From the NCBI GenBank assembly GCA_964407925.1, contig CAYOXM010000004.1, positions 12,389 to 76,388 on the forward strand: a stretch of DNA of 64,000 bases, given 5' to 3'. The notes below the pieces were generated by a model. That model saw only the letters and a program-made list of their open reading frames with translations. It had not been told where the DNA came from and made no database searches. The position numbers and the translations under genes are program-made. Positions 5,276-40,612 of this stretch are shown here, one piece after another. Numbering within the stretch: the stretch's first letter is position 1; the number at the start of each line of letters is the position of its first letter. This DNA is from an uncultured Gammaproteobacteria bacterium. Its GTDB lineage: Bacteria; Patescibacteriota; Patescibacteriia; SG8-24.

Positions 5276-7431
<2,156 letters not shown>

Positions 7432-8310
7432 CTATGGACAGCTGATGGTACCGCTCTTCACGATGGAACATTCGCTGAACACGACGAAATCGTATACTCC
7501 CGAAAGCGGCGTCTGCCGCGGCAGGGTGATGAGCAGCTTCTGCTCCACACCGGCGAACGTGCCGCGACTGTCGACTTTGACGCGACCGGGGAGGTTCACC
7601 GGCGCGTTCCCCGCGTCGTACCCGCGGATCTGCACGTTCTCGAGCGCCCCCTTTCGGGCGACGAGCCTGATGCGGTACAGCTTGTCCGGCGCCGCGACAG
7701 GGAGCACGGCGGTACCGCCGACGTACTGGTTCACGCCGATGGCCACGTTCGCCGCGTTGAGCGGGTCCCACGCGCCTCCGGGCTGCCAGCCGATGAGCGT
7801 CGCGCCCAGTACCGTACAGCCGGAGCAGGCATCGGTCCACGTCACCTCGACTTTGGCCACGTTCGCGCTCGCCTGCGTATCGGGATTGAAGAGCGCGATT
7901 TCCGTGAAGGAATCCTCGAGGATGGTCCCCGCGTAAATGACGCTCTCCTTGTCGTCGACCGACCGCTTCCATGTCGCGTTGTTGGTGAGGGCGGTGGCGC
8001 TGCTCACCGACGACGGCAGCGTGCCGGTCCGCCGCGCCTTGAACAGGGCGTCTTCCGCGCCGCTTTCGGCCGCGTAGTACGCGACGATGGCGCTGTCGAT
8101 GACGCGGGTCTGCTGGAGCGAACTCAGGATGAGCGAACCCAGACCGACGGACGATATGACGACCGACGACATGACGATGAGCGCCATGAGCAGGACGGTG
8201 CCACGGGAGTCGAAGGCGGAGGGTCGAGAGTGGTGAGTCTCGCGCGCCGAACCTCGCCCCGCGAAAGGACGTTCCACTTTCCACTTTCCGCTTTCCACTG
8301 GACGTACCAT
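7432..8310 (-). CDS. PilX-like minor pilin / pilus-associated protein (PilX_N-type hydrophobic N-terminus); start uncertain
   Basis: ORF 7432..8592; hydrophobic segment 'SRGTVLLMALIVMSSVVISSVGLG' resembles the PilX N-terminal domain. Last gene of the pilin/pseudopilin run. Confidence 0.55.
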   Translation of the reverse strand: MVRPVESGKWKVERPFAGRGSARETHHSRPSAFDSRGTVLLMALIVMSSVVISSVGLGSLILSSLQQTRVIDSAIVAYYAAESGAEDALFKARRTGTLPSSVSSATALTNNATWKRSVDDKESVIYAGTILEDSFTEIALFNPDTQASANVAKVEVTWTDACSGCTVLGATLIGWQPGGAWDPLNAANVAIGVNQYVGGTAVLPVAAPDKLYRIRLVARKGALENVQIRGYDAGNAPVNLPGRVKVDSRGTFAGVEQKLLITLPRQTPLSGVYDFVVFSECSIVKSGTISCP

Positions 8311-8312
8311 AG

Positions 8313-8939
8313 CTATCTCTTGTATTTCCTGTTCGTCGCCGTCGTCTGGAGGTAAACGACGGAACGCTCGGCCTGCCGCTCCGCCGAGCTTTCGAGCATC
8401 AGGACGGCGGTCACGCGCGGCTGGAGGTTGGCGGCATACGTTCCCGTGTTCGGATCGAACGCGTTCGGATCGGTCACGGGACCGATGTAGAACTTCACGT
8501 TGTCCACCTTCACGCCCTTCGGGGTGATCGGCGCCGGCGTTCCCGTGCCGACGGTCACGAGCAGGCACGGCCTGCTGAGCGTGTCCGCGCAATTCGACTC
8601 GTTGCCGGAGTCGCTCACGTGGAAACGAAGCTTCGTGTTCGTGCTGTCGATGAGCGCGAGTTCCCCCTCCGGGACGCCGATGGCGGTTCCGCGCGAAACG
8701 TAATACGCGTAATCGAGCGTCCCGGTGCGCACCTCGCGGACGATCGCCTCCATGGTGAACCGCGCGTCCGCCTGGACGCGTTCCAGGCCGAACATCTTGC
8801 GCTGCGACTTGTTGGCGAGCAGGAAGATGTCCGACGCCGCGACGACGACGGTCGAGAAGATGCCGAGGACGACGAGCAGCTCCATCAGCGTGAAGCCGCG
8901 CGCCGCCGCGATTTTCCGCGCATGGACGGTCCTCCGCAT
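8313..8939 (-). CDS. type IV pilin-like minor pilin (pseudopilin) with class III signal peptide
   Basis: N-terminus MRRTVHARKIAAARG|FTLMELLVVLGIFS: G-1, F+1, E+5 prepilin peptidase motif. Adjacent to the upstream pseudopilin stop. Confidence 0.8.
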   Translation of the reverse strand: MRRTVHARKIAAARGFTLMELLVVLGIFSTVVVAASDIFLLANKSQRKMFGLERVQADARFTMEAIVREVRTGTLDYAYYVSRGTAIGVPEGELALIDSTNTKLRFHVSDSGNESNCADTLSRPCLLVTVGTGTPAPITPKGVKVDNVKFYIGPVTDPNAFDPNTGTYAANLQPRVTAVLMLESSAERQAERSVVYLQTTATNRKYKR

Positions 8940-8940
8940 A

Positions 8941-9615
8941 TCAGCGCCAATTGAACATCCGCTCTTCGACATCGAGCGTGTGCACGCGGCCGGCGACGGC
9001 CCAGCGCATCTTCGAGGTCACGCGCATGCCGATCTTCTCGGCCGCGCCGCAACCGGCGCCGCTCGTCACGATGGTGTAGCCGCCCGCGCCGTTGTCGCAC
9101 AGGGGGTCGGTGACGATCAGCCGGCTGAACCCCGAGACTACGGTACCCGCGGGCTGCGCGGCAGCCTGGACGAACAACCCGACGGTGGCGCCGCCGCCGC
9201 CCGTGGTGTAACGGTACACGCGCGCCGCGTTCGCGGTGATGACGTTCGCGGCCGCGTAGTTGACCGACCACGCGTTCGTCGACGGCGAAAATTCGGCAAT
9301 GCCCGTGTAATCGGTGCCGTTGTACAGCCCGCTGTCGAACTGCTGGCCCGCCAGCCAGTTCGAGTCGCGTATCGCGCGCACCGCCTCGATGCCTTCGCGC
9401 GCCAAATTGCCGGCCATGATGCTCGCCTCGCTCTCCTTTTCGGCCTTGATGGTCCCCGCGACCAGCGTGAGCGCGGACGACACCGCCGTCACGATGATGC
9501 CCGTCGCGATGATCGCCTCGAGCATGCTCTGCCCCCTTTGGCGAAGTCCGCGACCGCGGCGCGGCCGATTGCGCTCCGGCAGGGCGTTGTCCGAAAACGT
9601 CGCGGCGTGAGGCAT
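8941..9615 (-). CDS. type IV pilin-like minor pilin (pseudopilin)
   Basis: N-terminus ...RQRG|QSMLEAIIATGIIVTAV with E+5, followed by a hydrophobic helix. Confidence 0.75.
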   Translation of the reverse strand: MPHAATFSDNALPERNRPRRGRGLRQRGQSMLEAIIATGIIVTAVSSALTLVAGTIKAEKESEASIMAGNLAREGIEAVRAIRDSNWLAGQQFDSGLYNGTDYTGIAEFSPSTNAWSVNYAAANVITANAARVYRYTTGGGGATVGLFVQAAAQPAGTVVSGFSRLIVTDPLCDNGAGGYTIVTSGAGCGAAEKIGMRVTSKMRWAVAGRVHTLDVEERMFNWR

Positions 9616-9616
9616 A

Positions 9617-10237
9617 TCAGTCGGCGTTGACTTGTCCCGTGATGCGGTTCACCGTCACGTTTTTCGTCTGGCCCGTCGCCGCGTGCCGCGTGGTGACGGA
9701 CGCCACGCCGGTCGCCGTCGAACCGTTGAAGTACACCGAAGGTTTCGGCGGCTCGAAGACGATGTCGAGCGTCGCGCCGGCAGCGGGAGAGAGCGTCGAC
9801 ACCTTCACGCTCGGACCAGGCGACGCCGAGTCCGACCGGATGAGTTCGCCCGCGTCATAGGCGCGGTCGCCGTCAAGGTCGGCGAACAGGATGACGCTGC
9901 GGTCGTCCGGCGACGTCGTCGAGAGCCGGATGCCGTAACCGCGCGGCACTTCGACGACGCACGTGCCGCCGCCGCACTCCGCGCTGAGGCCCGACGGGCA
10001 CGTTTGCAGGTCGCGCGTTCCTCCGCGGCAGAACGCCGTCGTTTGGCCGGCGACGGCGAGCGTCTGCGCGCGCCGGATTGCGGTCGCCACGAGCTGGCTC
10101 GACAGTCGCAGCTCGTCACCCTGCCGGCCCGCGCGGAAATTCGCGGTGACGAACGCCGTCACGACGGCGAAAATGCTCATTGAGAGGAGCATCTCGATGA
10201 GCGTGAACCCGCGCAAAATTCCGCGATGGCGCGTCAT
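9617..10237 (-). CDS. type IV pilin-like minor pilin (GspH/FimT-like pseudopilin)
   Basis: N-terminus MTRHRGILRG|FTLIEMLLSMSIFAVV class III signal. Start overlaps the pilD stop by 4 bp. Confidence 0.8.
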   Translation of the reverse strand: MTRHRGILRGFTLIEMLLSMSIFAVVTAFVTANFRAGRQGDELRLSSQLVATAIRRAQTLAVAGQTTAFCRGGTRDLQTCPSGLSAECGGGTCVVEVPRGYGIRLSTTSPDDRSVILFADLDGDRAYDAGELIRSDSASPGPSVKVSTLSPAAGATLDIVFEPPKPSVYFNGSTATGVASVTTRHAATGQTKNVTVNRITGQVNAD

Positions 10238-11016
10238 AGGAGTCCCAAGTACCACTGCGCGATGTCATTTCCCCAGAGCAGGCTCGCGACGGCGCCGACG
10301 GCGAGGAACGTGCCGAACGGTATCTGGCTCTGCCAAGAACGCTTCTTCGAGGCGAGGAGCGCGAGGCCGAACAGCGCGCCGGAGACGTACGCGACGAACA
10401 GCGCGACCAGCGTGAGCGGCAGGCCGAGCATGGCGCCGACGAGCAGGCCGAGGTGGACGTCGCCGCCGCCGATCCACTTCCCTTTCGACAGCCAGAACTG
10501 CAGTTGGAAGATGCCGGCGCCGACGACCGCGCCGAGAACGAGTCCCGGCCACGGCATGCCGAGAGCGAGGTTGCCCGCAAAGACGAGCGCCGCCGCCGGA
10601 AGCGTCACCGACCGCAGGATCAGCATGTAACGGTAATCGAACACGAACACCACGACGAGCGTCGCGATGAAGTACCAGGCGAGCAGGAGTTTCGCGAGCC
10701 CGCGGGCGTCGATGAATCCCGCCTCAGGGATCATCCTCGCGGCCGCGGCGAGGAAGAGGATGCCGGTAGCCGCCTCGATCACGAAGTACGACGGGCTGAT
10801 TCCCGCCTTGCAGTAACGGCATCGTCCGCGGAGCAGCAGGGCCCAACTGACGAGCGGAATCAGGTCCTTCGGCGCGAGTTCGTGCCGGCACGACGTGCAA
10901 TAGGATCGGCCGGACACGAAGCTCTCGCCGGTCCTGAGCCGCCACAGCACCGCGTTAAGAAAGCTCCCGATGACGGTGCCGAACAGGAAGACGAATGCCG
11001 CGAGAACGGGTGACAT
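10234..11016 (-). CDS. pilD: prepilin peptidase (A24 family) / N-methyltransferase
   Basis: 260-aa polytopic membrane protein with N-terminal CxxC...CxxC zinc-binding motif (CTSCRHEL...CRYC) and A24 aspartyl-peptidase-like core. Confidence 0.85.
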   Translation of the reverse strand: MSPVLAAFVFLFGTVIGSFLNAVLWRLRTGESFVSGRSYCTSCRHELAPKDLIPLVSWALLLRGRCRYCKAGISPSYFVIEAATGILFLAAAARMIPEAGFIDARGLAKLLLAWYFIATLVVVFVFDYRYMLILRSVTLPAAALVFAGNLALGMPWPGLVLGAVVGAGIFQLQFWLSKGKWIGGGDVHLGLLVGAMLGLPLTLVALFVAYVSGALFGLALLASKKRSWQSQIPFGTFLAVGAVASLLWGNDIAQWYLGLL

Positions 11017-11045
11017 GGGCGCTTACTGACGCCGAACGGCGCCCG

Positions 11046-11543
11046 TCATTGGATGCCGCTCTCCGTGGCGGTATGAACGCCCGCGGCAAGGTCGCCGACC
11101 TGGGCGCCGATGCAGAACGCGATCGTGTACGCGCCGCCCGCGGGAGCGGTGTAGCCGTAATCGTTTTGACCGGAAGAGCAGGTCCCGTCGACGGGCGTGG
11201 GAGCCTTCGGCACGAGCCCCATGTAGGTCGTGTCGCCAGAGGCGCACGCGGTCTTCCAGCCGCCGTTCGAGCAGAGCGCGCCGTAGCTGCCGCCGGCGCC
11301 GAGAACGATGGCCGACGCGGCAGTCGGGTACCCGTTGTTTTCCGAATAATAGAGTTCGAGCGCCGTCTGGATCTGCTTGACGTCGGCGACGCGCTTCGAG
11401 TCGCGCGACTTCTGGCGCGCGCTGTTCAAGGCGACGACGGCGAGCGTCGAGAGGATGCCGATGATGGCGATGACCACCAAGAGCTCGATGAGCGTGAAGC
11501 CGGCGTATGCCGGTCGTGAGCCGTCGTTGCGCGTTTTTCGCAT
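11046..11543 (-). CDS. pilA: type IV major pilin paralog 1 (PilA-like), 166 aa
   Basis: Real start at internal Met of ORF 11046..11966: MRKTRNDGSRPAYAG|FTLIELLVVIAIIGIL... The upstream 141 codons of the ORF are R/P-rich noise. C-terminal Cys pair. Confidence 0.85.
   Translation of the reverse strand: MRKTRNDGSRPAYAGFTLIELLVVIAIIGILSTLAVVALNSARQKSRDSKRVADVKQIQTALELYYSENNGYPTAASAIVLGAGGSYGALCSNGGWKTACASGDTTYMGLVPKAPTPVDGTCSSGQNDYGYTAPAGGAYTIAFCIGAQVGDLAAGVHTATESGIQ
11348..11498 (-). repeat. ~150-nt near-identical segment shared by the two tandem pilin genes (copy in pilin paralog 1)
   Basis: GAGTTCGAGCGCCGTCTGGATCTGCTTGACGTCGGCGACGCGCTTCGAGTCGCGCGACTTCTGGCGCGCGCTGTTCAAGGCGACGACGGCGAGCGTCGA...GAGCTCGATGAGCGTGAAGCC is present in both genes (few mismatches). 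It encodes GFTLIELLVVIAIIG...QIQTALELY. Confidence 0.75.
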
Positions 11544-11570
11544 AGGGTGACTTACTGTGAATACCGCACC

Positions 11571-11600
11571 AGCATACCATTTTTCGCGCTCAACGGACAA
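11571..11600 (-). promoter_or_regulatory. candidate promoter of pilin paralog 1 (TTGTCC-18-TGGTATGCT)
   Basis: Minus strand TTGTCC ... extended -10 TGGTATGCT ~25 nt upstream of the ATG at 11543; no clear SD. Confidence 0.35.
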
Positions 11601-11614
11601 ATCGCGCGCATACG

Positions 11615-11640
11615 AAAACCCCTGCTCGAGCAGGGGTTTT
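11615..11640. terminator. bidirectional rho-independent terminator between the two pilin genes
   Basis: AAAACCCCTGCTCGAGCAGGGGTTTT: 7-bp G/C-rich stem, 4-nt loop, flanked by A4 and T4; 25 nt downstream of the pilin paralog 2 stop. Confidence 0.75.
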
Positions 11641-11664
11641 CCGGTCCAAAATCCGACGAGCGGA

Positions 11665-12147
11665 TTATTGGATGCCGTTCGGGGTCGCCGTGTGCACGCC
11701 GGCAACGAGGTCGCCGACAGCGCCTCCGAGGCAGAACGCGACCGTATACGTGGTACACGGGGCGGTCGTGCAGGAGTTGAACATGTACGGGTTCGTCGTC
11801 GTGGTGCACGTGCCGTCAAACGGCGTCGGCTTCGCGGGGACCAGACCCATGTAGGTCGTGTCGCCCGAGGCGCACGTGGCCTTCCAGCCGCCGTTCGAGC
11901 AGAGGGCCTTGTAGCTGCCCTGACCGAGTTCCTGCGCTGACGCCACGGCAGGATAGCCGTTCGCATCCGCGAAGTAGAGTTCGAGCGCCGTCTGGATCTG
12001 CTTGACGTCGGCGACGCGCTTCGAGTCGCGCGACTTCTGGCGCGCGCTGTTCAAGGCGACGACGGCGAGCGTCGAAAGCAGGCCGATGATGGCGATGACC
12101 ACCAAGAGCTCGATGAGCGTGAAGCCCTTTTGATTAGATTTCGTCAT
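11665..12147 (-). CDS. pilA: type IV major pilin paralog 2 (PilA-like), 160 aa
   Basis: MTKSNQKG|FTLIELLVVIAIIGLL...; ~55 N-terminal codons are nucleotide-identical to paralog 1. Strong SD (GGGAGGTG) and sigma70-like promoter upstream. Confidence 0.9.
   Translation of the reverse strand: MTKSNQKGFTLIELLVVIAIIGLLSTLAVVALNSARQKSRDSKRVADVKQIQTALELYFADANGYPAVASAQELGQGSYKALCSNGGWKATCASGDTTYMGLVPAKPTPFDGTCTTTTNPYMFNSCTTAPCTTYTVAFCLGGAVGDLVAGVHTATPNGIQ
11973..12123 (-). repeat. ~150-nt near-identical segment (copy in pilin paralog 2)
   Basis: See 11348..11498; direct repeat spacing ~625 nt. Confidence 0.75.
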
Positions 12148-12176
12148 AGTTTCACCTCCCTTACGTTACTTAGGAT

Positions 12177-12193
12177 CTCCCTGATATCAGGAG
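12177..12193 (-). promoter_or_regulatory. palindrome CTCC(C)TGATATCAGGAG in the pilin paralog 2 5' UTR
   Basis: Near-perfect 17-bp inverted repeat centred on GATATC, between the -10 box and the SD. Confidence 0.4.
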
Positions 12194-12243
12194 CCTAAGA
12201 GCGCGGACAAGGTCGCCCTTATCCACATTATTTAGGCTTACCA

Positions 12244-12272
12244 ACTATACCACAGAACGCGCCCTCAAACAA
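12244..12272 (-). promoter_or_regulatory. sigma70-like promoter of pilin paralog 2 (TTGTTT-17-TATAGT)
   Basis: Minus strand: TTGTTT (12267-12272), 17-nt spacer, TATAGT (12244-12249); strong SD GGGAGGTG 6 nt before the ATG at 12147. Confidence 0.55.
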
Positions 12273-12294
12273 AGCGAAAGGGTCAAGCCTCGCC

Positions 12295-13503
12295 CTAGAA
12301 ATTCGAGGCGAGGTTGTACATCGGCAGGATGATCGCCGCGACCATGATGCCCACCGCGAGACCCATGACGAGCATGATAAGCGGTTCGATGGCCGAGACG
12401 AGATTCGAAACGCTGTTCTGCAATTCGCGCGAGTAAAAGCTGGTCAGGCGCTCGAGCACCTCGCCGAGCCGGCCCGTTTCCTCGCCGACGGACATCATCT
12501 GCGGAATCATGCCCGGCACCGATTTCTCCCTGAAAAAGACGGTCGTGATCGAATTGCCGTCAGAAACCTCCTTTTTCGTCTCGAGCAGCTGCCGCTTGTA
12601 GTAATCGTTACCCACGATGTCCGCGCAAATCTCTATGCTCGACGGAATGTCGACGCCGCCGGAAAGCAGAGTGGACATGCTCCGCGTCATGCGAACGATG
12701 TAGATTTTTTCGAGCAGGTCGCCGAAGACCGGGATTTTGAGCTTGGCGCGATCCCACAGGGAACGGCCGGTCGGCGTATTCGTCCACCACCGGAATGCCG
12801 CGCCGCCGAGGAACGCGCCGATGACGATCTGGATGGCGAATTTCTGGAAAAACTTGCTCGTCCCGATGAGCAGCCGCGTCGTCCATGGCAGCGCCGCGCC
12901 GGACTCCGAAAGCACCGCGGTGAGTTTCGGAACGACGAACGTCATCATGACGAAGCCGACGATGACGAGGCCGATGATGATGAAGATCGGGTAAATCATA
13001 GCGCCCTTGATCTGCGTCATCAGGTCGTAGTCGCGCTCCATCTGGTCGGCGAGGTAGTTCATCACGTCCTCGAGACGACCCGTCGTTTCGCCCGAGCGGA
13101 TCATGTTCACGAAGAACGCGGAAAACGCCTTCGGGTGCTTCGCCATCGCCATGGAAAGCGACGTGCCCGACTCAACCTCGTTCGCGACGTCGGCGACGAT
13201 GCCGTTCAGCTTCCTGTTCTGGGTCTGCTTCGCGACCGTCTTGAGCGCTTGGACGATCGGCACCTTCGCGCCCATGAGCACGGAAAACTGACGCGAAAAA
13301 ATGACGATGTCCTTGATCGGGATGCTGTTGAAGAACGGAAGCTCCTTTTCAAAAAGGACCTTTTCCTGATGCTCCTCGATGGAGAGCACGAAAAGGCCCT
13401 TGTCCTTCAGGGTGTCGGTCGCGATGTCCAGGGTATCCGCCTCGACCGCGCCTTGGAGCGCGTTGCCTGCGGCGTCCCGGGCGCGGTAATCGTAGCGCGG
13501 CAT
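12295..13503 (-). CDS. pilC: type IV pilus assembly platform protein PilC (GspF family)
   Basis: 402-aa protein with duplicated GspF domains and three TM segments. Confidence 0.9.
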   Translation of the reverse strand: MPRYDYRARDAAGNALQGAVEADTLDIATDTLKDKGLFVLSIEEHQEKVLFEKELPFFNSIPIKDIVIFSRQFSVLMGAKVPIVQALKTVAKQTQNRKLNGIVADVANEVESGTSLSMAMAKHPKAFSAFFVNMIRSGETTGRLEDVMNYLADQMERDYDLMTQIKGAMIYPIFIIIGLVIVGFVMMTFVVPKLTAVLSESGAALPWTTRLLIGTSKFFQKFAIQIVIGAFLGGAAFRWWTNTPTGRSLWDRAKLKIPVFGDLLEKIYIVRMTRSMSTLLSGGVDIPSSIEICADIVGNDYYKRQLLETKKEVSDGNSITTVFFREKSVPGMIPQMMSVGEETGRLGEVLERLTSFYSRELQNSVSNLVSAIEPLIMLVMGLAVGIMVAAIILPMYNLASNF

Positions 13504-13537
13504 GATTCCTCCCCTCCTGCGGACCGGCGGCCCTTCG

Positions 13538-13924
13538 TTAAGCGATCTTGAGCACCTTCTTGATCTTGTCGACCGCCTCGGCGGGCACGAAATGCGCCTT
13601 GATGAGGTAGTCCACGGCGCCGTCCTGCAGGCCCTTCTCGATGTCTTCCTTCTGGCCGAGGTTGGTGAGCATGATGACCGGGATGTTCTTGGTCGTCTCC
13701 TGCTGCTTCAGTTGCCGAAGCGCCTCGAACCCGTCGAGCTTGGGCATGAGCACGTCGAGCAGGATGAGGTCCGGCAGCTCTTTAAGCGCGGCCTTGACGC
13801 CCTCCTCCCCGTCACGCGCGGTCACGACGGCGAATCCTTCGATTTCGAGCTTGGTCGCGTAAATGCCGGACAGGAACGAGTCGTCATCCACGATGAGCAC
13901 TTTCGCTTTTACGGCGTCTGCCAT
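13538..13924 (-). CDS. single-domain response regulator receiver (CheY/PilH-like)
   Basis: 128 aa; 'KVLIVDDD', 'DLILLDVLMP', 'IPVIMLTN' receiver motifs; no output domain. Embedded between pilB and pilC. Confidence 0.85.
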   Translation of the reverse strand: MADAVKAKVLIVDDDSFLSGIYATKLEIEGFAVVTARDGEEGVKAALKELPDLILLDVLMPKLDGFEALRQLKQQETTKNIPVIMLTNLGQKEDIEKGLQDGAVDYLIKAHFVPAEAVDKIKKVLKIA

Positions 13925-13946
13925 ACGTCATGCGTTCTTTAATCGC

Positions 13947-15698
13947 TCATTCAGCGGTTATTCTGAGCACTTCCTCTATTGTAGTCGAACCCTCCAATGC
14001 CTTCAAGAGGCCGTCCTGCCGCAAGGTGATCGCCCCCTGCCGAACGAGCTGCTCCTTCACCTTGTCCATGGGGAACCCTTGGCTGATGAGCAGTCGCAGG
14101 TCGTCTCCGTACACGATCATCTCGGCGACGGCGACGCGGCCGACGTAGCCGGAGTCGCCGCAACGGACGCAGCCGCGGCCCTTGTGGACGGTCAGCTGCG
14201 GTGCGGCGATGTTCGCGGCGAGCGCGGCCTTGTAGGCCTCGGGAATCGCCGCAAGTTCCTCGCGGACCCGCTTTTCCATCTCCGGCGGCAACGTCGCCGT
14301 CCCCTTGCACCGTTCGCAGATTTTACGCGCGAGACGCTGGGCGATGGCGACGTTCAGCGTCGCGGAAAGCAGGAACGGCTCGACGTGCATGTCGGTCAGG
14401 CGCGGCACCACGCCGAGCGCGTCGTTCGTGTGGAGCGTCGAGAAGATGAGGTGGCCCGTGAGCGCGGCGTGAATGGCGAGCTCGCCGGTCTCGCCGTCAC
14501 GGATTTCGCCGACCATGATGATGTTCGGGTCCTGACGGAGGAGCGCGCGGAGGCCCGTGGCGAAGGTGTACCCGACTTCGTGCCGTATCTGCGACTGGTT
14601 CACGCCCTTGATGTAGTACTCGACCGGGTCCTCGAGGGTCGAGATGTTCACGCCTTCCTCGTTCCGCATGCTGAGGATGGTGAGGAGCGACGTCGATTTT
14701 CCCGAGCCGGTCGGACCGGTGATGAGGAAGATGCCATGCGGCTTGCGAATCTCCTCCTTGATGACCTGGATGTACTCCTTGCGGAAACCGAGCTGCTCGA
14801 GCGTCGGCACGCCGCGCGTCGTGTCGAGGATGCGCATCACCACCTTCTCGGTGTCGGAAAGCGGCATCGTCGATACGCGGAAGTCGATCACCTTGCCGTT
14901 GAAACTTTCGGTGATGCGGCCGTCCTGCGGCACGCGCGTCTCGTCGAGCTTGAGGTTCGCGAGCACCTTGATGCGCGACACGATGGACGGGTGGATGTAC
15001 TTCGGCAGCGTGAGCGAGGTGCGCAGTACGCCGTCGACGCGGTAGCGGACCCGCGTGTCGTCGCCGAACGGCTCGATGTGGATGTCCGAAGCGTTGCCGT
15101 CGACGGCGTGCCGCAGGATGACGGAGACGATGCGCGACACCGGCGCGCCCTTGATGGTCTCCTCGAGCTTCTCGCCCGAAACCGGCTCGACCTTCTTCTC
15201 GGGAACGAATTTCTCCTTCGCGACGGCGAGCGCGCCCTCGACCTCCTTGCCGATTTCCGCGTACTTCTTGAGCGCCGCGTTGAACGAGGCGTTGGAAATG
15301 ATGTGGTACTTCGGACGGAATCCTGCGGTCTGCGCCAAAAAGTCGATGGAGCTCGCGGCCTGCGAATCGCGCGGATCGACCATGCCGACGTGCACGCCCT
15401 CGTCGTCGCGATCGAACGCCACGGCCTTGTTCGTCTCGGCGACGGTCTTCGGGATCAGGTTCAGCACCGCCGCGGCGACGGACTTTCCCGTCAGTTCCGC
15501 GTAGGGCACGCCGAGGACCGTCCCGCGCGCCTTGGCGAGAAATTCCTCATCGACGAGCTTTTTCGCAAGCAAAAGCTCGTCGACCGGGCGACCGGACGCG
15601 GCAATCTCCTCTTGGACGGCCTTCGCCTGCTCGACGGTGATGCGTCCGGCATCGAGCAGGATCTCCAGCAATTCGGTTGACGGGTTGGGCATTGCCAT
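13947..15698 (-). CDS. pilB: type IV pilus assembly ATPase PilB (GspE family)
   Basis: 583 aa; Walker A 'GPTGSGKST', Asp box, His box, tetracysteine motif (CERCK...CVRCG). Confidence 0.95.
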   Translation of the reverse strand: MAMPNPSTELLEILLDAGRITVEQAKAVQEEIAASGRPVDELLLAKKLVDEEFLAKARGTVLGVPYAELTGKSVAAAVLNLIPKTVAETNKAVAFDRDDEGVHVGMVDPRDSQAASSIDFLAQTAGFRPKYHIISNASFNAALKKYAEIGKEVEGALAVAKEKFVPEKKVEPVSGEKLEETIKGAPVSRIVSVILRHAVDGNASDIHIEPFGDDTRVRYRVDGVLRTSLTLPKYIHPSIVSRIKVLANLKLDETRVPQDGRITESFNGKVIDFRVSTMPLSDTEKVVMRILDTTRGVPTLEQLGFRKEYIQVIKEEIRKPHGIFLITGPTGSGKSTSLLTILSMRNEEGVNISTLEDPVEYYIKGVNQSQIRHEVGYTFATGLRALLRQDPNIIMVGEIRDGETGELAIHAALTGHLIFSTLHTNDALGVVPRLTDMHVEPFLLSATLNVAIAQRLARKICERCKGTATLPPEMEKRVREELAAIPEAYKAALAANIAAPQLTVHKGRGCVRCGDSGYVGRVAVAEMIVYGDDLRLLISQGFPMDKVKEQLVRQGAITLRQDGLLKALEGSTTIEEVLRITAE

Positions 15699-15705
15699 AA
15701 CGTCT

Positions 15706-15999
15706 TTACCGCTGCGCCTCGCTCACGAAAGGGTTCGGGGACCCGGCGCCGCCGAGCGCGCGGACGGGAACGTCGCCGAACTGCTTGAGCGACTTATATT
15801 CGATGCGGTCGTAAATCTTGTCCTCGAGCGTCGTCGGCAAGGACAGCCGCGGCGAGCTCGGCGGCAGGGCCGCGTCGTCTCCGCTCGCCCGCGGGAGCAG
15901 CTTGTCTCGATAAAAATACAGCAGGACGACGACGATGATCGCGAGGATCGCGCCGAGGGCGAGGACTTGCTGCTGTTCTTTTTTCATCTTCATAGGCAT
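15706..15999 (-). CDS. small single-TM pilus-locus protein (PilP-like?)
   Basis: ORF 15706..16128; plausible start MPMKMKKEQQQ followed by a TM helix; start abuts the pilO stop. The upstream part of the ORF is R-rich noise. Confidence 0.5.
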   Translation of the reverse strand: MPMKMKKEQQQVLALGAILAIIVVVLLYFYRDKLLPRASGDDAALPPSSPRLSLPTTLEDKIYDRIEYKSLKQFGDVPVRALGGAGSPNPFVSEAQR

Positions 16000-16003
16000 C
16001 GGA

Positions 16004-17483: not shown

Positions 17484-18584
17484 TCATTCGATATCGCGCA
17501 TCGCGAGGCCGACCGTCACCGCGAAGCGCGGGCCGATCTCGTCGAGCACCGGCCGGAGTTCGTCGGAATACACGACGCGCGCCCAAGGGTCGCCGACGTA
17601 CGTCTTGGTGTTCAGCTGCTTCGCGAAAAAGCTCGCGAGCGCGGGAAGCGCCGACGCGCCGCCGGTGAGGATGATTTTCTCAATCGACTTGCCGGTCGAC
17701 TCACCGCCCTGGCCGCCGACGTACAGGTTCATCGAGTACTGCAGTTCGGTGAGCATCGGCGCGATGGCGGCCTCGAAAATCTTGGGAAGGCCCTCGCCGG
17801 GATACAGCGTCGAGACGCTCTTGATGTCGCACTTCATCTGTTCCGCCGCCTTCAGGTCCATCGAGAGCGTCTTCGCCATCGCGCGCGTGAGCGTCGCGCC
17901 GCCCATGTCGAGGCTGCGCGTGACGTACGGGATGCCGTTTTCGACGATGATGATGTTCGTCCGGACGGCGCCGACGTCGACGATCATCGAGGTCGCGCGG
18001 TCCTTGCCGATGAGCGAACGGATGAGCGCGAACGTCTCCGTCTCGAGGCTGACGAGCTCGAGGCCGGCCTGCTTGAAGACGGCGACGTACTTTTGCACCA
18101 TCGTCTTCGACGCTCCGGTAATCAGCACCTGCACCGTCTTCGGTTCGTCCTTCTTGTCCTTGTCCGCCGGCTTCGCGGCCTTGGCCTTCTCGCCGGGCGC
18201 GGTGATCGGCTTGAAGTCGAGCACCATCTCCTCAAGCGGCACGGGGATGAGCTTCTTGGCCTGCCACTGGATCGCCTCGCGAAGCTCCTTTTCGTTGCCC
18301 TTCGGCACGGTGATGACCGAACTGAAAACGGAAGCGATCGGCAAGCCCGCGATGGTACGCATCGTGCTCGTCTTCGCGCGCTGGACGATCTTGCGGAGCA
18401 GGTCAGCCGTTTCCTTCGGGGAATCGACGAGATTCACGGGCTGAACGTCGGGCATCCGTTCGGTGAAGCCGTACGTATGCAAACGCGCCCTCCCTTTCTC
18501 GTTCTGGAGCTCGACCAACTTCACGCCACCGGCGCCCAAGTCGACACCGAGATAGCTTTGCTTCTTAGGGCCGAAAAGTCCCAT
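17484..18584 (-). CDS. pilM: type IV pilus assembly protein PilM (actin-like ATPase fold)
   Basis: 366 aa; 'YLGVDLGAGGVKLVEL' sugar-kinase/actin-fold N-terminus typical of PilM. Confidence 0.85.
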   Translation of the reverse strand: MGLFGPKKQSYLGVDLGAGGVKLVELQNEKGRARLHTYGFTERMPDVQPVNLVDSPKETADLLRKIVQRAKTSTMRTIAGLPIASVFSSVITVPKGNEKELREAIQWQAKKLIPVPLEEMVLDFKPITAPGEKAKAAKPADKDKKDEPKTVQVLITGASKTMVQKYVAVFKQAGLELVSLETETFALIRSLIGKDRATSMIVDVGAVRTNIIIVENGIPYVTRSLDMGGATLTRAMAKTLSMDLKAAEQMKCDIKSVSTLYPGEGLPKIFEAAIAPMLTELQYSMNLYVGGQGGESTGKSIEKIILTGGASALPALASFFAKQLNTKTYVGDPWARVVYSDELRPVLDEIGPRFAVTVGLAMRDIE

Positions 18585-18681: not shown

Positions 18682-21600
18682 CTATTGCGGCGCCGAATCG
18701 GCGAAAATAGGCAGAGTTTTGGTCACGTCGCCGAATCCCGGGGGCGGGTTCACGACCGCCCGACCGTCATACACGAACTGCTCCGAACCCTGCGTGACGC
18801 TCTTGTAGGAACGGCTCAGGTGGAACTGCCGCGCGACGATGAGGCCGTGGAGCGTGAACGGATCGGGACTGTCCGAGAGCGGCGGAGCGACGCTCCAAAA
18901 ACCGTCATCGCCGCCGACGTAGAACGCGCCGACGAGGTTCTTGACGGACCCGTCGACGTAGACGTTGCCTTTGGCGTTCGACCCGTCGTCGACGACGATC
19001 CACCCGAGCGACGCCAACTGACGGAGATCGGTGACGGTCGAGGTGTCGTAGAGGAAATCGCCGTTGACGTAGAGATTGCCGCCGTCGACGAATACCGTGC
19101 CGTTCCCCTTCGTGCCGTCGTTGTAAATCGTATGCGCGCCCACCGTGGCGTCGCCGACGACGCGGAAGACCTTCCCGCCCAGCCGGTTCGAGTAGGAATT
19201 GAGCGTCGCGTCGAGCTGGCCGGGAGGGACGTCGATGACCGTGCCGAACTTTCCGGCGCGAAGGCCGGCGAGGTCGAGCTTGCCGAGAACGGACGAGTAC
19301 GCGTTGCCCGATTTCGGCCGATCGAACTTCACCGTCGCGTTCGGTCCGGCGGCGCCGGCTGCGGCGAGCGCGTCACAGGTCTGCGCGCTGTTGAAGTTGA
19401 TGATCACGTCCTTCGCGGTGACGCAGAACGTGGCGTTGTACTGGTTCGCCGGCGGGACGTCCGGCGCGGTGATGCGCTTCTTTGAGAAGACGTTGCCCTG
19501 CAGCGTCTGGAGCCACGGGTAGAGCAGGTTTTCGCAGCGGTTTGCCCCGGTGCAGGCGGGAGACCCCATCACGTCCGTGCAATCGACGTCACGCTTGCAC
19601 TTCTTGATACCGTCCTGACACAACCCGTAGCCCGGGAAGCCCGGCGCGGTGCCGCCGTCCGTGCACTGCGTGTCATCGAAGCAGACCTGGCCGCCGATGG
19701 TGCAGAGCCCCCACGCCGGCTCGCAAACCTGCGGATCAACGTGGTCGGGCGGCAAGAGCGAATAATCCATGCCGATCGACGGGCCGGGACAGGGGTAATC
19801 GCACACTTCGTCGGAATCGCACTCGCAGACGATTTCGGTATCGATCCTGCACCGGCCGTACTGCTTGTTCGGTTCGCAGACGTCGCCCACGCCGTTCGCG
19901 TTCGCGTCCGTCTGGGAGGCGTTCGGCAGGCCAACGCAGTTATCGCACGCCTTCGGCGACGTGGAGTACACGGTCGTATAGAGCCCTTCGGAGGCGCCAT
20001 CAAGGTCAAAATCGGCGTAGGCGCAACCGTTTCCGGGATCCGGGTCGCCGGGACCGGGGACGTCGTTACAGACGAAAATCGCCTTGCGGTTCGACTCCAC
20101 GGTGTCGCCGTCGCTGTCGCGGACGCCGACTGTCACGTAATACATCCCGTCTGGAATGGCAGTCGGAAGCGACACCTCCGCCTGGCACTGCATGGTATTG
20201 CCCGTACCGCCGCCAATCAGCCCGACGAACGTCGCGGTCGGCGGTGGGACGGGTCCGGGCGGACCGCCGACGACGACGCCTGCCGGCGTACGAACGTACA
20301 CCTCGCACGGCTGGTTGAATGAGTCACCGGGTGCGGTAATGAAGTTTGCCGAAACGGTCGTCTTTAGATTACCCGTGCGGAAAAACGGCTTGCCGGGGGT
20401 GACCGTCAGGGCCGAGGTCAGCGCCGGCGTGAGGTTCACGGAAAACGCGGGCGCGGAAAAATACGCGCCGAGGTTGCCAGCGCCGTCCTCCGCGCGCGCC
20501 TGAATCGTCAGCGCCATATCGCTCGGAAACAGGAGGGGTGCCGTGAGGCAATCGGGTCCTGTCGGAAAAACGGTGCCGTTGATCTTCACGTCACAGCGGC
20601 AAATGCCCGACGAAAGGGGCGGCGCTCCCCCGGGATCGGTCGGGACCCCCCGAAACATCCGCATTTGCTGCGAGAGTGACGGGGCGACGCCATAGGGGAC
20701 GCGTATCGTGCCGCCCATGGCGGCTTCCGGTTCGACTTCGATGACCGTCGGGACCGTACTCTCGTACAAGGTAGTCGAAAAATTCACGTCGCCATATTCC
20801 GCGACGTCACCGGGCTGCTTGAGCATCGAAATGCTGATCGGGTAGTTCTTCGTCGCCGCGGGAGTCGCGGGCGTGGCGCAGGTCAGCGTGACGTCGAACG
20901 GTCCGAAATTCCCGCCCGGCGTGTTGTAGATCTGCACGGCGTGGCCGGCGACGGCGAGGAAGGTCAGCCGCGCGTGCGGCAGCCCCGTGACCGAATCCAG
21001 GAGCGTGCAGGTCGGGTTCGCCGCGGCGTACGGGTAATACTTCGCCGCGTCGGTGTTGTCGCCGACGATGATCGTAACCGAAGAATACGTCCCTGACCCG
21101 GTGAACCGGAGCACGTCGGTCGAAGACACGTGCGCAGCGACGCGGACGGTCGCGAGGACGGTGGGATTGTTGCTCGTGAACGCGGTCGGCGCGGTCGAGC
21201 GCGGCACGACCTGGCACGTCGCGTTCGTCCAATTCTTCGGCGCGCAGGTACCGACGCCCCAGCAGCTCGAGTCCGCGCAGTCGATCGCCGCATCCCCGTC
21301 GTTGTCCTTGCCGTCACCGCAGGACGATTCTCCCGCCGGCTGACAGGCCTGCAGCTCGGGACCGAGACTGCCCGCGCACTGGGAGTCCGCGCAATCGACC
21401 TTGGCGTCCGAGTCGTTGTCGAAGCCGTCGCCGCACTCGTCGTTCGTGTCCTCCGCCGTCGCGCACATCGCCGCATGCCCGAGACTGCCGAGGTTAGGCC
21501 TGTTCGCCGCCCCCGCGTCGGCGGCGCAGTCCGTCACGTCCGCGCAGTCCTTGATGACGTCAGTGTCGTTGTCGCTGCCGTCGGCGCAAGAATCGTACGT

Positions 21601-23007
21601 GACGTCCTCGCGCGACGGGCACGGCCCGCAATTGCCGAACTTCCGCTTGCAATCGGTATCCGCGCAATCCTGCGGCCCGTCACCGTCGTCGTCGAAGGCG
21701 TTGCCGCAGTACTGATAGCGCTGGCCGAGGTCGAATTCCTTGTCGTAACAGACCTTGGAGGTGTCGAGCGGGTTGACGACGCCCTTGCAGTCGGTGTCGG
21801 CGCAATCCGAAAGGTGGTCGAGGTCGTCATCGACGCCGTTGAAGCACTGCGCGTCGGCATCAACGCCTCCCGCCGTCTTGTTCTCGCTCGCGGGGCAGGC
21901 GGCGTTGCCGGCGCAATCGTAATCCAGGCAGCGGAGCTCGCCGCCCACGGTGATTTCGCCGCCGGTCAGCGGCGCGTTGTCCCACGAGGGGTCGTAGCTC
22001 TTGTCCTTGTCGTTGTCGATGAAATCGGAGCAGCTCGTCTCCGTGGCGGGGCAGCCAAAAGCCGTTTTCTTCCAACAGATGGTGTTGACGTTGCCGCCCG
22101 CCGTCACGTCGAAGACGTTATCGACGCAGTCGGAAAGGCCGTCGGCGTCGTTGTCGAACGCGTCGCCGCACGTCGTAAGGCCGGTCTCGTTGCCGAACTG
22201 GCAAAGCGCCGTGCCCGACGGCTGCCCGACCTTGTTGTTGCAGCTGCTGTCGAGGCAGTCCGGCTTGCCGTCGGCGTCGTTGTCGAATCCGTCGTTGCAG
22301 GTGTTCTCCGGCTGCTCGCAGAGCGCGCCGCTCCCGACATTGCCCGTCTTGCCGGAACACTGCACGTCGGCACAGTCGCCGCCGAAGTCGAGATCGTTAT
22401 CGATGGCATCGGCGCAGGGGAAATCCATGCCCGAAATCGCGCCCCACGACGTCGATTCGTCACCGTTCGACGGCGCGCCCGCGTCGACGTAGAACGTGAG
22501 CGTCTGGCCGCCCGTATCGCCGTTCTGGATGACGCTCAGGCTGAAGTCGTAGGAACCCGCGGCGAGGCCGGAGAACTTCACGCTCATCACCTGGTCGACG
22601 ATGCACCCGGCGCATCCGTCGTTGTCCTTGCGCTCATAGGCGGTGCGTCCCGGATTCACGTCCTCGAGCGGCAGGATGACCGCGCTGTTCGTCGGATTCG
22701 CGTACTTGTCCCAAGTCGTGAAGGCGGGAAGGTCGAACAGGATGTACGAGACGAGACCCGCGGTGCTGTACACGCCGCCGTTCAGACGGACCTTGAGTTC
22801 GCCGCTCGGCGAAAGATGCTGGGTGTACGAGTAGTTCACGGTCTGCCCGCCGACGACCATCGATCCGGTACAGACGTTGCCCGCGCAGGGCGTGCCCGAG
22901 ACGAGCGCGCGCGCCGGCATGGCCGAACGCGCGCCAAACCAGACGACCGTCGCGAGGACGAAGGCCGACATGATGCCGATGGCGGTGGCGCGCGGGGCGG
23001 TCCTCAT
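18682..23007 (-). CDS. giant secreted repeat protein (1441 aa) with 9 or more MopE/thrombospondin-type-3-like Cys-framed Asp-rich repeats; candidate pilus-associated adhesin
   Basis: Start at MRTAPRATAIGIMSAFVLATVVWFGARSAMPARA (signal peptide). Repeats CADAIDNDLDFGGDCADVQC, CNDGFDNDADGKPDCLDSSC, CGDAFDNDADGLSDCVDN, CFNGVDDDLDHLSDCADTDC, CGNAFDDDGDGPQDCADTDC, CADGSDNDTDVIKDCADVTDC, CGDGFDNDSDAKVDCADSQC, CGDGKDNDGDAAIDCADSSC; later a TSP3-like 'QTDANANGVGDVCE' and Cys-rich segments. Confidence 0.8.
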   Translation of the reverse strand: MRTAPRATAIGIMSAFVLATVVWFGARSAMPARALVSGTPCAGNVCTGSMVVGGQTVNYSYTQHLSPSGELKVRLNGGVYSTAGLVSYILFDLPAFTTWDKYANPTNSAVILPLEDVNPGRTAYERKDNDGCAGCIVDQVMSVKFSGLAAGSYDFSLSVIQNGDTGGQTLTFYVDAGAPSNGDESTSWGAISGMDFPCADAIDNDLDFGGDCADVQCSGKTGNVGSGALCEQPENTCNDGFDNDADGKPDCLDSSCNNKVGQPSGTALCQFGNETGLTTCGDAFDNDADGLSDCVDNVFDVTAGGNVNTICWKKTAFGCPATETSCSDFIDNDKDKSYDPSWDNAPLTGGEITVGGELRCLDYDCAGNAACPASENKTAGGVDADAQCFNGVDDDLDHLSDCADTDCKGVVNPLDTSKVCYDKEFDLGQRYQYCGNAFDDDGDGPQDCADTDCKRKFGNCGPCPSREDVTYDSCADGSDNDTDVIKDCADVTDCAADAGAANRPNLGSLGHAAMCATAEDTNDECGDGFDNDSDAKVDCADSQCAGSLGPELQACQPAGESSCGDGKDNDGDAAIDCADSSCWGVGTCAPKNWTNATCQVVPRSTAPTAFTSNNPTVLATVRVAAHVSSTDVLRFTGSGTYSSVTIIVGDNTDAAKYYPYAAANPTCTLLDSVTGLPHARLTFLAVAGHAVQIYNTPGGNFGPFDVTLTCATPATPAATKNYPISISMLKQPGDVAEYGDVNFSTTLYESTVPTVIEVEPEAAMGGTIRVPYGVAPSLSQQMRMFRGVPTDPGGAPPLSSGICRCDVKINGTVFPTGPDCLTAPLLFPSDMALTIQARAEDGAGNLGAYFSAPAFSVNLTPALTSALTVTPGKPFFRTGNLKTTVSANFITAPGDSFNQPCEVYVRTPAGVVVGGPPGPVPPPTATFVGLIGGGTGNTMQCQAEVSLPTAIPDGMYYVTVGVRDSDGDTVESNRKAIFVCNDVPGPGDPDPGNGCAYADFDLDGASEGLYTTVYSTSPKACDNCVGLPNASQTDANANGVGDVCEPNKQYGRCRIDTEIVCECDSDEVCDYPCPGPSIGMDYSLLPPDHVDPQVCEPAWGLCTIGGQVCFDDTQCTDGGTAPGFPGYGLCQDGIKKCKRDVDCTDVMGSPACTGANRCENLLYPWLQTLQGNVFSKKRITAPDVPPANQYNATFCVTAKDVIINFNSAQTCDALAAAGAAGPNATVKFDRPKSGNAYSSVLGKLDLAGLRAGKFGTVIDVPPGQLDATLNSYSNRLGGKVFRVVGDATVGAHTIYNDGTKGNGTVFVDGGNLYVNGDFLYDTSTVTDLRQLASLGWIVVDDGSNAKGNVYVDGSVKNLVGAFYVGGDDGFWSVAPPLSDSPDPFTLHGLIVARQFHLSRSYKSVTQGSEQFVYDGRAVVNPPPGFGDVTKTLPIFADSAPQ

Positions 23008-24674: not shown

Positions 24675-24691
24675 ACTCGTGCTTGAGTATA
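24675..24691 (-). promoter_or_regulatory. TATACT -10 box 11 nt upstream of the GWAWS-repeat protein ATG (leaderless or short-leader transcript?)
   Basis: Minus strand ...TTTTTCGTGCTATACTCAAGCACGAGT-ATG; no SD. Confidence 0.35.
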
Positions 24692-24694
24692 GCA

Positions 24695-24725
24695 CGAAAA
24701 ATAGCCGATTTCACGGCTATTTTTA
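24695..24725. terminator. rho-independent terminator after rnhA (perfect 11-bp stem)
   Basis: AAAAATAGCCG-atttca-CGGCTATTTTT; on the minus strand the hairpin is followed by TTTTTCG. It lies between the rnhA stop and the GWAWS-protein start. Confidence 0.75.
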
Positions 24726-27044: not shown

Positions 27045-27191
27045 CTAGCTCGTGAACGCCGGGGAGATCATCCCCATGACGGTCACGATGGCGACGAACG
27101 CGTAGAGGGCGATGACGAGCGCGCGCTTGACGGCGCGCTTGCGAATTTTCGTCTTGGAAAGCGTCGGAAACGTGAGTGCGGGGAACTTCAT
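27045..27191 (-). CDS. possible small hydrophobic protein (48 aa)
   Basis: Hand-found ORF (below the track's size cut-off): MKFPALTFPTLSKTKIRKRAVKRALVIALYAFVAIVTVMGMISPAFTS, followed by a strong terminator hairpin. Coding status unproven. Confidence 0.25.
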   Translation of the reverse strand: MKFPALTFPTLSKTKIRKRAVKRALVIALYAFVAIVTVMGMISPAFTS

Positions 27192-27201
27192 TGCGGTACG
27201 G

Positions 27202-29007
<1,806 letters not shown>

Positions 29008-29013
29008 AGGACG

Positions 29014-37475: not shown

Positions 37476-37513
37476 TGTGGATAACGAAAGACCGGCTTTC
37501 GCCGGCCTGCGTT

Positions 37514-38764: not shown

Positions 38765-39226
38765 CTATTTTGGCGCACCCGACAACGCGTAGAGGGCTAC
38801 ACCGCAGGCGACCGCGACATTGAAGGATTCCTTGATCCCGACCATGGGAATTTCGACCGTCGCCTCGAGCCGTTTTCGGAGTGCGGGAGAGAGCCCACGC
38901 ACTTCGTTTCCGACGACGAGCGCGAGTTTCTTCGGCGGGCGATATCCGCCGATGGGCACCGAACCGGCGCACCGTTCGAGGCCGACTCCGGCATACCCCT
39001 CTTTCTTCAATCGCTCCACCACGCGCCAGGCATGACCGCTCTTCTCCCATGGGACCGCGAGTTCCGCGCCGAGCGCGACTTTCTTGAGACCGTTCTGCTC
39101 CGGCGTTCCCGTAATGCCGCACAGGAAAATTTTTTTCACGCCGAAACCGTCGGCGGTCCGGAACATCGAACCAACGTTATGCAAAGAACGGATGTTATCG
39201 AGGACGAGGACGATATCTGGACGCAT
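38765..39226 (-). CDS. SpoU/TrmH-family RNA 2'-O-methyltransferase
   Basis: 153 aa; SPOUT motifs (LVLDNIRSLHNVGSMFRTADGFG; LVVGNEVRGLS; NVAVACGVALY). Confidence 0.85.
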   Translation of the reverse strand: MRPDIVLVLDNIRSLHNVGSMFRTADGFGVKKIFLCGITGTPEQNGLKKVALGAELAVPWEKSGHAWRVVERLKKEGYAGVGLERCAGSVPIGGYRPPKKLALVVGNEVRGLSPALRKRLEATVEIPMVGIKESFNVAVACGVALYALSGAPK

Positions 39227-39228
39227 GG

Positions 39229-40572: not shown

Positions 40573-40589
40573 CCGCGCCGGCGCGGTCA
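40570..40589 (+). terminator. perfect 20-bp palindrome overlapping the rlmD stop codon, followed by a T-rich tract (terminator)
   Basis: TGACCGCGCC|GGCGCGGTCA then TTGCGTTTTC. Confidence 0.6.
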
Positions 40590-40612
40590 TTGCGTTTTCA
40601 GGGGAAAGAAAA

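Follow-up and report, generated by a model that had tools for sequence, protein, structure and literature searches.

Here, we analysed a 64,000-nucleotide (nt) stretch of contig CAYOXM010000004.1 (assembly GCA_964407925.1, positions 12,389 to 76,388; hereafter the window), in which two adjacent major-type type IV pilin genes, W_1 (11665-12147) and W_2 (11046-11543), lie on the minus strand within a pilus operon. In all likelihood these are old tandem paralogs whose α1-helix segment has been kept alike by gene conversion while their globular heads diverged. The α1-coding segment was homogenised recently, in a lineage-specific manner and recurrently across the family, by an internal, non-crossover conversion patch of about 100-150 nt. 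The leaders, the 5' flanks and the globular-domain sequences have kept separate ancestries, and both genes are selectively maintained. All coordinates below are window positions, unless a locus of a relative is named.

The two pilin genes share a nearly identical helix-coding block

The block copy in W_1 (11974-12126, minus strand) encodes Gly-1 to Tyr50 of the mature protein, and 149 of the 153 nt of its counterpart in W_2 (11349-11501, minus strand) are the same. An earlier note on this DNA had described tandem pilin paralogs sharing an N-terminal block of about 150 nt as direct repeats 625 nt apart, and in this it was accurate. We equate the block with the α1 helix, because the single helix in the AlphaFold2 model of W_1 spans residues 11-62. 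Three of the four differences cluster in one codon pair, Leu-Leu in one copy and Ile-Leu in the other, and the block contains two perfect runs, one of 101 nt (11350-11450 = 11975-12075) and one of 45 nt (11457-11501 = 12082-12126). At the protein level 49 of 50 α1 residues are identical between W_1 and W_2; however, the block hardly varies in amino acids throughout the whole family, so that protein identity is uninformative here and nucleotide identity is the informative measure.

Synonymous positions distinguish the block sharply from the rest of the gene. Among codons for identical amino acids, 2 of 50 differ synonymously in the block vs 26 of 64 in the C-terminal part (Fisher p = 2.5e-6). 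The Nei-Gojobori synonymous divergence (dS) between W_1 and W_2 is 0.066 in the block and 0.96 in the C-terminal part, which is far from the equal divergence inside and outside the block that the earlier note had named as speaking against conversion. When the expectation was taken from the codon usage of eight confident genes of the window, 26.3 identical codons were predicted for the block and 48 of 50 were found (P < 1e-6), whereas 38 of 64 identical C-terminal codons compare with 36.3 expected; the synonymous sites there are fully randomised. The permutation probability for the longest run, that of 101 nt, is p <= 1e-5, and for the run of silent codons it is p = 2.7e-4. The identity run is thus significantly longer than predicted from the distribution of differences, as expected under interlocus gene conversion. 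The C-terminal domains, previously called divergent, are indeed saturated at synonymous sites, but they remain clearly homologous, with 63% amino-acid and 68% nucleotide identity.

The C-terminal parts group by ortholog and the block groups by genome

Loci of relatives were drawn from 14 other assemblies via pilin hits and a PilC alignment, and the PilC-alignment scans returned three loci from genomes and five from metagenomes. The exact W_1 and W_2 sequences had no match in the contig index, and the contig of the closest LigA relative, L018 (87% identity), stops short of the pilin locus. Among relatives with this two-gene layout L013 is the closest, and it has clear orthologs of both genes. 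In the C-terminal part, nucleotide identity is 80% between W_1 and L013_1 and 78% between W_2 and L013_2, against 66-69% for the cross pairs. In the quartet of W_1, W_2, L013_1 and L013_2, 32 C-terminal sites group the sequences by ortholog vs 5 and 4 for the alternatives, whereas in the block of the same quartet 12 sites group by genome and 1 by ortholog. Within a 102-nt sub-block the W pair has one difference and the L013 pair two, while W_1 differs from copies in other genomes by 10-17. Thus, on both the L013 quartet and dS, paralogs are closer than orthologs in the block while the flanks keep their orthology, which is the signature of concerted evolution. It can therefore be concluded that the duplication is older than the split of the two organisms and that the block was homogenised separately in each. 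The ortholog grouping of the C-terminal part together with the genome grouping of the block points to an internal gene-conversion patch and not to a recent duplication. The gene conversion suggested in the earlier note is borne out, as an ongoing or recent process, by the quartets, in which concerted evolution is confined to the block.

A single unequal crossover does not account for the pattern either, since W_2 retains its own leader, 5' flank and head; its 5' flank (a -10-like motif followed by GCGGTATTCA) is common to L013_2. The copy-specific Leu/Ile codon kept inside the block likewise argues for an internal patch rather than a crossover. The phenomenon is not restricted to the window: the fraction of synonymously differing block codons is 1/51 in L015, 4/49 in L003, 5/44 in L016, 7/50 in L013 and 8/51 in L017, and similar homogenisation is seen in six of nine multi-copy loci. 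The block is not homogenised in L001 and L004, where 17 of 48 codons differ.

At block codon 16 (approximately mature position 15) Leu (CTG or TTG) marks the first copy and Ile (ATC) the later ones. This difference holds in the window, L013 and L003 although both flanks are identical; the position was also compared in L001 and L004, and P0010 is an exception, being a later-copy-type protein with Leu. The kept codon reflects either selection at a transmembrane position or separate conversion tracts. We also considered whether W_2 could be chimeric, with a 'copy-3' head end joined to a 'copy-2' tail from arrays of the L001 type. Nucleotide identities did not support this, and L013 gave the true orthologs.

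W_1 and W_2 encode major-type pilins under purifying selection

Both genes were delimited by their open reading frames (ORFs) and translations. W_1 encodes 160 amino acids with six Cys, and its leader MTKSNQKG (seven residues plus Gly-1) is followed by FTLIELLVV; W_2 encodes 165 amino acids with four Cys, and its leader of 14 residues, MRKTRNDGSRPAYAG, ends AYAG and is followed by the same FTLIELLVV. The PF07963 N_methyl match is above the curated cut-off for both (E = 2.4e-10 for W_1 and E = 7e-9 for W_2). The two proteins also carry the features of a class III signal peptide, namely a short basic leader ending in Gly, Phe at +1, Glu at +5 and a hydrophobic stretch, and adjacency to pilD, pilC and pilB, with pilM further off, is the gene context of type IV pilins. 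The mature sizes are 150-152 amino acids. The combined Gly, Ala, Ser and Thr content (GAST) is 40.8% in W_1 and 44.0% in W_2, vs 28% for PilB and PilC, and both values fall within the 38-47% quoted for major pilins (PMC11623550).

The AlphaFold2 model of W_1 has a pLDDT (predicted local distance difference test score) of 92.6, and its helix is followed by a beta domain with six strands, so that the predicted structure fits the 'lollipop' pilin fold. The best match of the model in the PDB, PAK pilin 1oqw, is weak (Foldseek E = 0.16, TM score 0.43-0.47), and a Foldseek comparison of the globular domain of W_1 with the PDB gave no strong match. The C-terminal ratio of nonsynonymous to synonymous divergence (dN/dS) against orthologs is 0.10-0.22 for W_1 and W_2, therefore both are under purifying selection; the value of about 0.10 for W_2 vs L013_2 means that W_2 is a constrained, functional gene. 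The extra Cys pair of W_1 lies at mature residues 118 and 123, in the short insertion MFNSCTTAPCT, while W_2 and most family members have four Cys. The sequence suggests that this pair may form an additional small disulfide-bonded surface loop specific to W_1.

Expression signals of the two genes are unequal

Each gene had been assigned its own promoter in the earlier note, with a terminator between the two. A TGnTAnnnT motif resembling an extended -10 element is indeed found upstream of W_1, of W_2 and of nearly every pilin copy in 12 related loci, but a generic sigma-70 scan of 10900-12400 called no promoter. The candidate motif of W_1, TGGTATAGT (12244-12252, minus strand), is conserved as TGnTATAnT in front of the first copy in 12 of 12 loci, its L016 counterpart being TGATAGAAT. 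That of W_2, TGGTATGCT (11571-11579, minus strand), has TTGTCC 18 nt upstream (11595-11600), and the counterpart in L013 reads TGCTATACT and then GCGGTATTCA. Similarly, a GC-rich hairpin with a flanking U-run, AAAACCCCTGCTCGAGCAGGGGTTTT, lies between the genes (11615-11640, minus strand), 24 nt past the W_1 stop, and resembles a terminator, although a generic terminator scan of the same interval missed it. It folds with a 12-bp stem (region z = -3.1), and an equivalent hairpin with a T-run occupies most intergenic spacers after pilin copies of relatives. In an Rfam search at a permissive threshold the sole match was sub-threshold and fell on this hairpin.

The difference in Shine-Dalgarno (SD) sequences that had been noticed before is real and conserved. 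W_1 has a strong SD, GGGAGGTGA (12152-12160), and W_2 has none. W_1 alone has a structured leader of about 95 nt (12148-12243, minus strand), conserved across loci, whereas the leader of W_2 is only about 20 nt long. The same holds in relatives: a long structured leader with a strong SD belongs to the first copy, and at later copies the leader shrinks to about 20 nt and mostly lacks an SD. The W_1 leader contains the invariant TGTGGATAA (12219-12227), hairpin 1 (12203-12226) and hairpin 2 (12169-12199). The TGTGGATAA element is unchanged in 10 of 10 aligned leaders and forms the 5' arm of the hairpin GUGGAUAAGG-loop-CCUUAUCCGC; covariation in the leader is weak because one arm never varies. 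In the second hairpin the CUUAGG arm could pair alternatively with an upstream CCUAA, and the strong SD follows. The first-copy leader had no Rfam match.

Conserved leader sites of relatives lie at 5920-5928 in L001, 1616-1624 in L003, 4682-4690 in L004, 1406-1414 in L006, 4832-4840 in L009, 7284-7292 in L010, 7300-7308 in L011, 2590-2598 in L014 and 899-907 in L015. The TGTGGATAA 9-mer occurs once per pilin locus and is flipped in L016 (4692-4700, minus strand) and L017 (4262-4270, minus strand), where it stands upstream of the promoter-like motif. Its flipped orientation in these two loci makes it a candidate DNA-level protein-binding site rather than an RNA element; it is the reverse complement of the DnaA-box consensus TTATCCACA. 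The window holds two copies of the 9-mer vs 0.06 expected. The second (37476-37484, plus strand) is about 47 nt upstream of a TGGTATAGT motif that precedes a pyruvate:ferredoxin oxidoreductase gene (36268-37398, minus strand).

Downstream, W_2 ends 29 nt from pilD with no convincing hairpin in the gap, thus W_2 is probably co-transcribed with pilD. Upstream, a hairpin CCTCGCC...GGCGAGG (12288-12313, minus strand) spans the pilC stop and is followed by a T-rich stretch; from its sequence, this could be a terminator or an attenuator setting the W_1 transcription unit apart from pilC. Each pilin gene would be its own transcription unit, of unequal strength, as the conserved signals suggest, and it is plausible that the asymmetry in leader and SD means differential expression of W_1 and W_2. 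W_1 would probably be the main subunit, because it has the conserved structured leader, the strong SD and a terminator of its own. W_2, with its short SD-less leader and probable read-through into pilD, would probably be a lower-level or differently regulated alternative.

Pilin copy number varies between relatives

Relatives differ in how many major-type pilin genes lie between pilC and pilD. A single gene occupies this place in L010, L011 and L014, two genes are present in the window, L013, L015, L016 and L017, and L001, L003, L004 and L006 have three. No pilin remnants were found in the long spacers of the single-copy locus L014. The direct repeats could serve as substrates of unequal recombination, which probably explains these differences. 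A hybrid protein, P0006, was recovered from one 880-nt ENA contig. It combines a W_1 leader (8 of 8 residues) and the copy-1 Leu codon with a head of the W_2 type, which is identical to W_2 at 90 of 100 residues vs 67 for W_1, and the gene after it begins 30 nt downstream, as pilD does in the window. Judged by its sequence, P0006 may be the expected product of deletion by recombination within the block, and it may also result from mis-threading of a repeat by a graph assembler. Deletion or amplification through the repeats, as raised in the earlier note, is hence plausible on an evolutionary scale, given one, two or three copies, but the hybrid that would illustrate it may be a chimera.

Pilin-bearing public contigs are often very short, or they start or end beside the block; examples are P0005, P0006, P0007 and numerous hits on 600-1000-nt contigs, and the first letters of L013 (1-20) already lie within the copy-1 leader. 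These observations fit with short-read assemblies being broken up by the repeated block.

Alternative explanations

The near-identity of the block could also reflect selection on the nucleotide sequence itself (mRNA structure, co-translational targeting signals or extreme codon bias), with no recombination involved. The coding strand of the block does hold an imperfect palindrome (inverted repeats I10 and I11), and the GC content of 65% narrows codon choice. However, in 169 between-genome pairs encoding at least 47 of 51 identical block residues, from genomes with 59-65% GC, a median of 37.5% (range 10-59%) of the codons for identical amino acids differ synonymously, vs 4% within the window, and the L001 and L004 paralogs differ at 17 of 48 codons. 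The codon-usage control likewise expects identity at only about 26 of 50. Since genomes of similar GC differ to this extent, constraint at the nucleotide level was excluded, and we give it almost no credence. Equally improbable is a recent tandem duplication after which positive selection drove the heads alone apart very fast; recent duplication was one of two options in the earlier note. Surface-exposed pilin domains are often under diversifying selection, and such a history would produce a near-identical block beside different heads, but the saturated C-terminal synonymous sites (dS 0.96; 38 identical codons vs 36.3) are beyond the reach of selection acting on the protein. Moreover, each head has its own L013 ortholog (32 sites vs 5 and 4), and leaders and 5' flanks are unrelated between the copies yet conserved with their orthologs. 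An assembly artefact, in which the two blocks were collapsed or cross-polished to one consensus or strains were mixed, is very unlikely, if slightly less so than these two. Repeats of 100-150 nt are near read length, and public pilin contigs are short or broken near the block (the start of L013; many of 600-1000 nt). The assembler nevertheless told the copies apart, because three clustered copy-specific differences survive in the block; the longest perfect run (101 nt) is below common read lengths, and five other independent assemblies display the same pattern, graded from 88% to 99%.

The repeats could finally constitute a switching system, in which recombination swaps the head behind the strong W_1 signals and generates phase, antigenic or host-range variation within populations. 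We consider this unlikely, though it deserves more weight than the explanations above. The repeats are direct and 625 nt apart, relatives carry one, two or three copies, the strong expression signals belong to copy 1 only and are conserved as such, and P0006 has exactly the structure predicted for a deletion product. Deletion is irreversible without a reservoir, however, and the 64-kb window contains no further block copies; tblastn with both C-terminal domains found no head-only or silent cassettes in it. The variable C-terminal sequence in Neisseria comes from silent, 5'-truncated cassettes, and the process requires a guanine-quadruplex (G4) element. Here both copies are complete and the C-terminal regions are not homogenised, and no G4 motif, (G3+N1-7)x4, was present on either strand in 8000-16000. 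Pfam scans of selected ORFs detected no invertase or recombinase domain; inversion of the Moraxella Piv type is also disfavoured, since the repeats are direct, not inverted, and the scanned ORFs of the operon showed no recombinase domain. P0006 comes from one short contig and could be a de Bruijn-graph chimera across the repeat, and the copy-number differences are between species, not within one. With no silent cassettes, no G4 motifs in that interval and no recombinase among the scanned ORFs, the phase or antigenic variation raised earlier was not supported as a programmed process. A related and similarly doubtful idea is that the α1 block acts as a portable homology region that makes the heads modular, with unequal recombination varying the pilus surface in populations. 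Conversion would in that case keep every copy compatible with one assembly machine, unequal recombination in the block would time and again generate, remove and re-join copies, and hybrids such as P0006 would place another head behind the strong first-copy promoter and leader.

Gene conversion between old paralogs thus remains our favoured explanation, and several points count against it. The block identity comes from one metagenome assembly, and the whole analysis draws on metagenome assemblies. In the 45-nt 5' sub-block orthologs differ by only 2-10 nt, so that it has little signal of its own, and we treat the 101-nt run as the secure tract. The Leu/Ile codon kept between two homogenised runs in three lineages is not explained by a simple single tract. 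As to the wider picture, P0006 derives from a single 880-nt contig and is known at the protein level only, and the promoters and terminator are drawn from conserved motifs where the generic scans called none.

A possible mechanism of homogenisation

The α1 helix is the membrane anchor and filament core of a pilin, and it is the part recognised by PilD and the assembly platform. Packing of the helix in the filament core has been described (PMC10628169). We propose that general homologous recombination between the tandem repeats, presumably RecA-dependent, carries out the conversion. Purifying selection on the helix would hold the copies at least 80-85% identical, which should be enough for homologous recombination, and each conversion would reset divergence, so that the process could sustain itself. 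W_1 and W_2 would in this way be equivalent substrates for PilD and the assembly platform and would share their packing interface; therefore one machine could build both, possibly into one mixed filament with different surfaces. By analogy with PilE1 and PilE2 of Streptococcus sanguinis, the two may co-polymerise.

The pilus operon and its organism

The operon runs on the minus strand in the order pilM ... pilB, response regulator, pilC, W_1, W_2, pilD and minor pilins. It includes pilM (17484-18584), the assembly ATPase gene pilB (13947-15698; PF00437, E = 3e-117), a receiver-only response regulator gene (13538-13924; PF00072), the platform protein gene pilC directly upstream of W_1 (12295-13503; PF00482, E = 1e-58), the prepilin peptidase gene pilD directly downstream of W_2 (10234-11016; PF06750 and PF01478) and three minor pilin-like genes (9617-10255, 8941-9615 and 8313-8972), all on the minus strand; ligA (5276-7348) is listed after the latter. 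The response regulator has 128 amino acids and is devoid of an output domain, and wherever a locus extends over this position (L001, L004, L014 and L016), a stand-alone receiver gene separates pilB from pilC.

Several long ORFs (484 to 1453 amino acids) had no Pfam match at E <= 1e-5: 18682-23043, 54517-58020, 23004-24695 and 39136-40590 on the minus strand and 27112-29019 on the plus strand. The ORF of 1453 amino acids is directly upstream of pilM. With 65% GC in the window, a few of them could be spurious and lie on the wrong strand.

The named homologues of LigA and of the pilins belong to Patescibacteria (Uhrbacteria, Parcubacteria SG8_24 and 'Patescibacteria group'). Hence the window most likely stems from a high-GC (65%) member of this radiation of ultrasmall bacteria. 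Public labels of related pilus loci conflict: the records of L001/L007 (DATJFD010000042), L004 (DATJGO010000026) and L005/L017 (JBEEJS01) are labelled Candidatus Binatia, Candidatus Eisenbacteria and Candidatus Parcubacteria, respectively. Because the LigA and pilin homologues point to Patescibacteria, we doubt the first two labels; judging from these sequences, a high-GC lineage of Patescibacteria was probably misbinned or misclassified in those records.

Comparison with known systems

Bacteria of the candidate phyla radiation (CPR) have a monoderm-like envelope. The monoderm S. sanguinis assembles PilE1 and PilE2, whose α1 is identical, into one heteropolymeric type IV pilus (PMC10628169). 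As in the window, one machinery there serves two major-type pilins with a shared α1 and different globular domains (PMC10628169, PMC6497953). Co-assembly and comparable abundance were demonstrated in that system and are hypothetical for the window pair; in addition, W_2 has no SD and the heads of the window pair are far more divergent (63% identity). Nucleotide-level conversion does not figure in the accessible portions of the S. sanguinis work. Haloferax PilA1-6 are likewise paralogs with a near-identical N-terminal hydrophobic segment and a divergent remainder, each of which can be the major pilin. Unlike the window pair they are archaeal, and the available account neither describes a tandem array nor makes a claim of conversion at the DNA level.

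Gene conversion between copies of a pilin gene is established for Neisseria pilE/pilS (PMC4023411, PMC13017665), but the geometry is the opposite: the window copies are complete, and the converted tract is the constant N-terminal part. Concerted evolution of duplicates by recurrent conversion has been reported for tufA/tufB and flagellin among 19 bacterial genes (PMC6053082). There, too, paralogs within a genome are closer than orthologs, and flagellin is also a filament subunit. In contrast to these cases, conversion in the window is limited to one domain while the rest evolves independently, and the 19 genes listed there do not include pilins. More than one major pilin per cell is known from Saccharibacteria TM7x (PilA1/PilA2) and Thermus thermophilus (PilA4/PilA5) (PMC11623550, PMC7203116); those pairs belong to distinct loci or filaments, whereas the window pilins are neighbouring paralogs flanked by one pilC and one pilD. 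In a non-exhaustive literature search we found no description of α1-restricted conversion in Patescibacteria pilin arrays. Since pilins with a shared N-terminus, pilin conversion and concerted evolution are already known, the partial gene conversion described here is a clean and well-supported but unsurprising example.

Significance for pilus evolution in Patescibacteria

There are practical consequences. Where pilin contigs in metagenome assemblies are fragmented or chimeric, the repeated block is likely to be responsible. Trees of whole pilin genes mix two histories, therefore only the C-terminal domain should be used for phylogenies.

Nearly all Patescibacteria have type IV pili, with which they attach to host cells, and these pili are central to the episymbiotic lifestyle of the CPR (PMC11623550). 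Hence the origin of the subunit repertoire and its fit to one machine matter for host specificity. If the heads were modular, as in the doubtful idea considered above, general recombination alone would let populations of host-dependent cells change the surface of their pili, and possibly also the hosts they use or the phages they are exposed to. The gene conversion that we favour means that homologous recombination is active in these reduced genomes and that it acts on one domain, the assembly interface being homogenised while the exposed heads diverge, a pattern that recurs across independent lineages together with changes in copy number.

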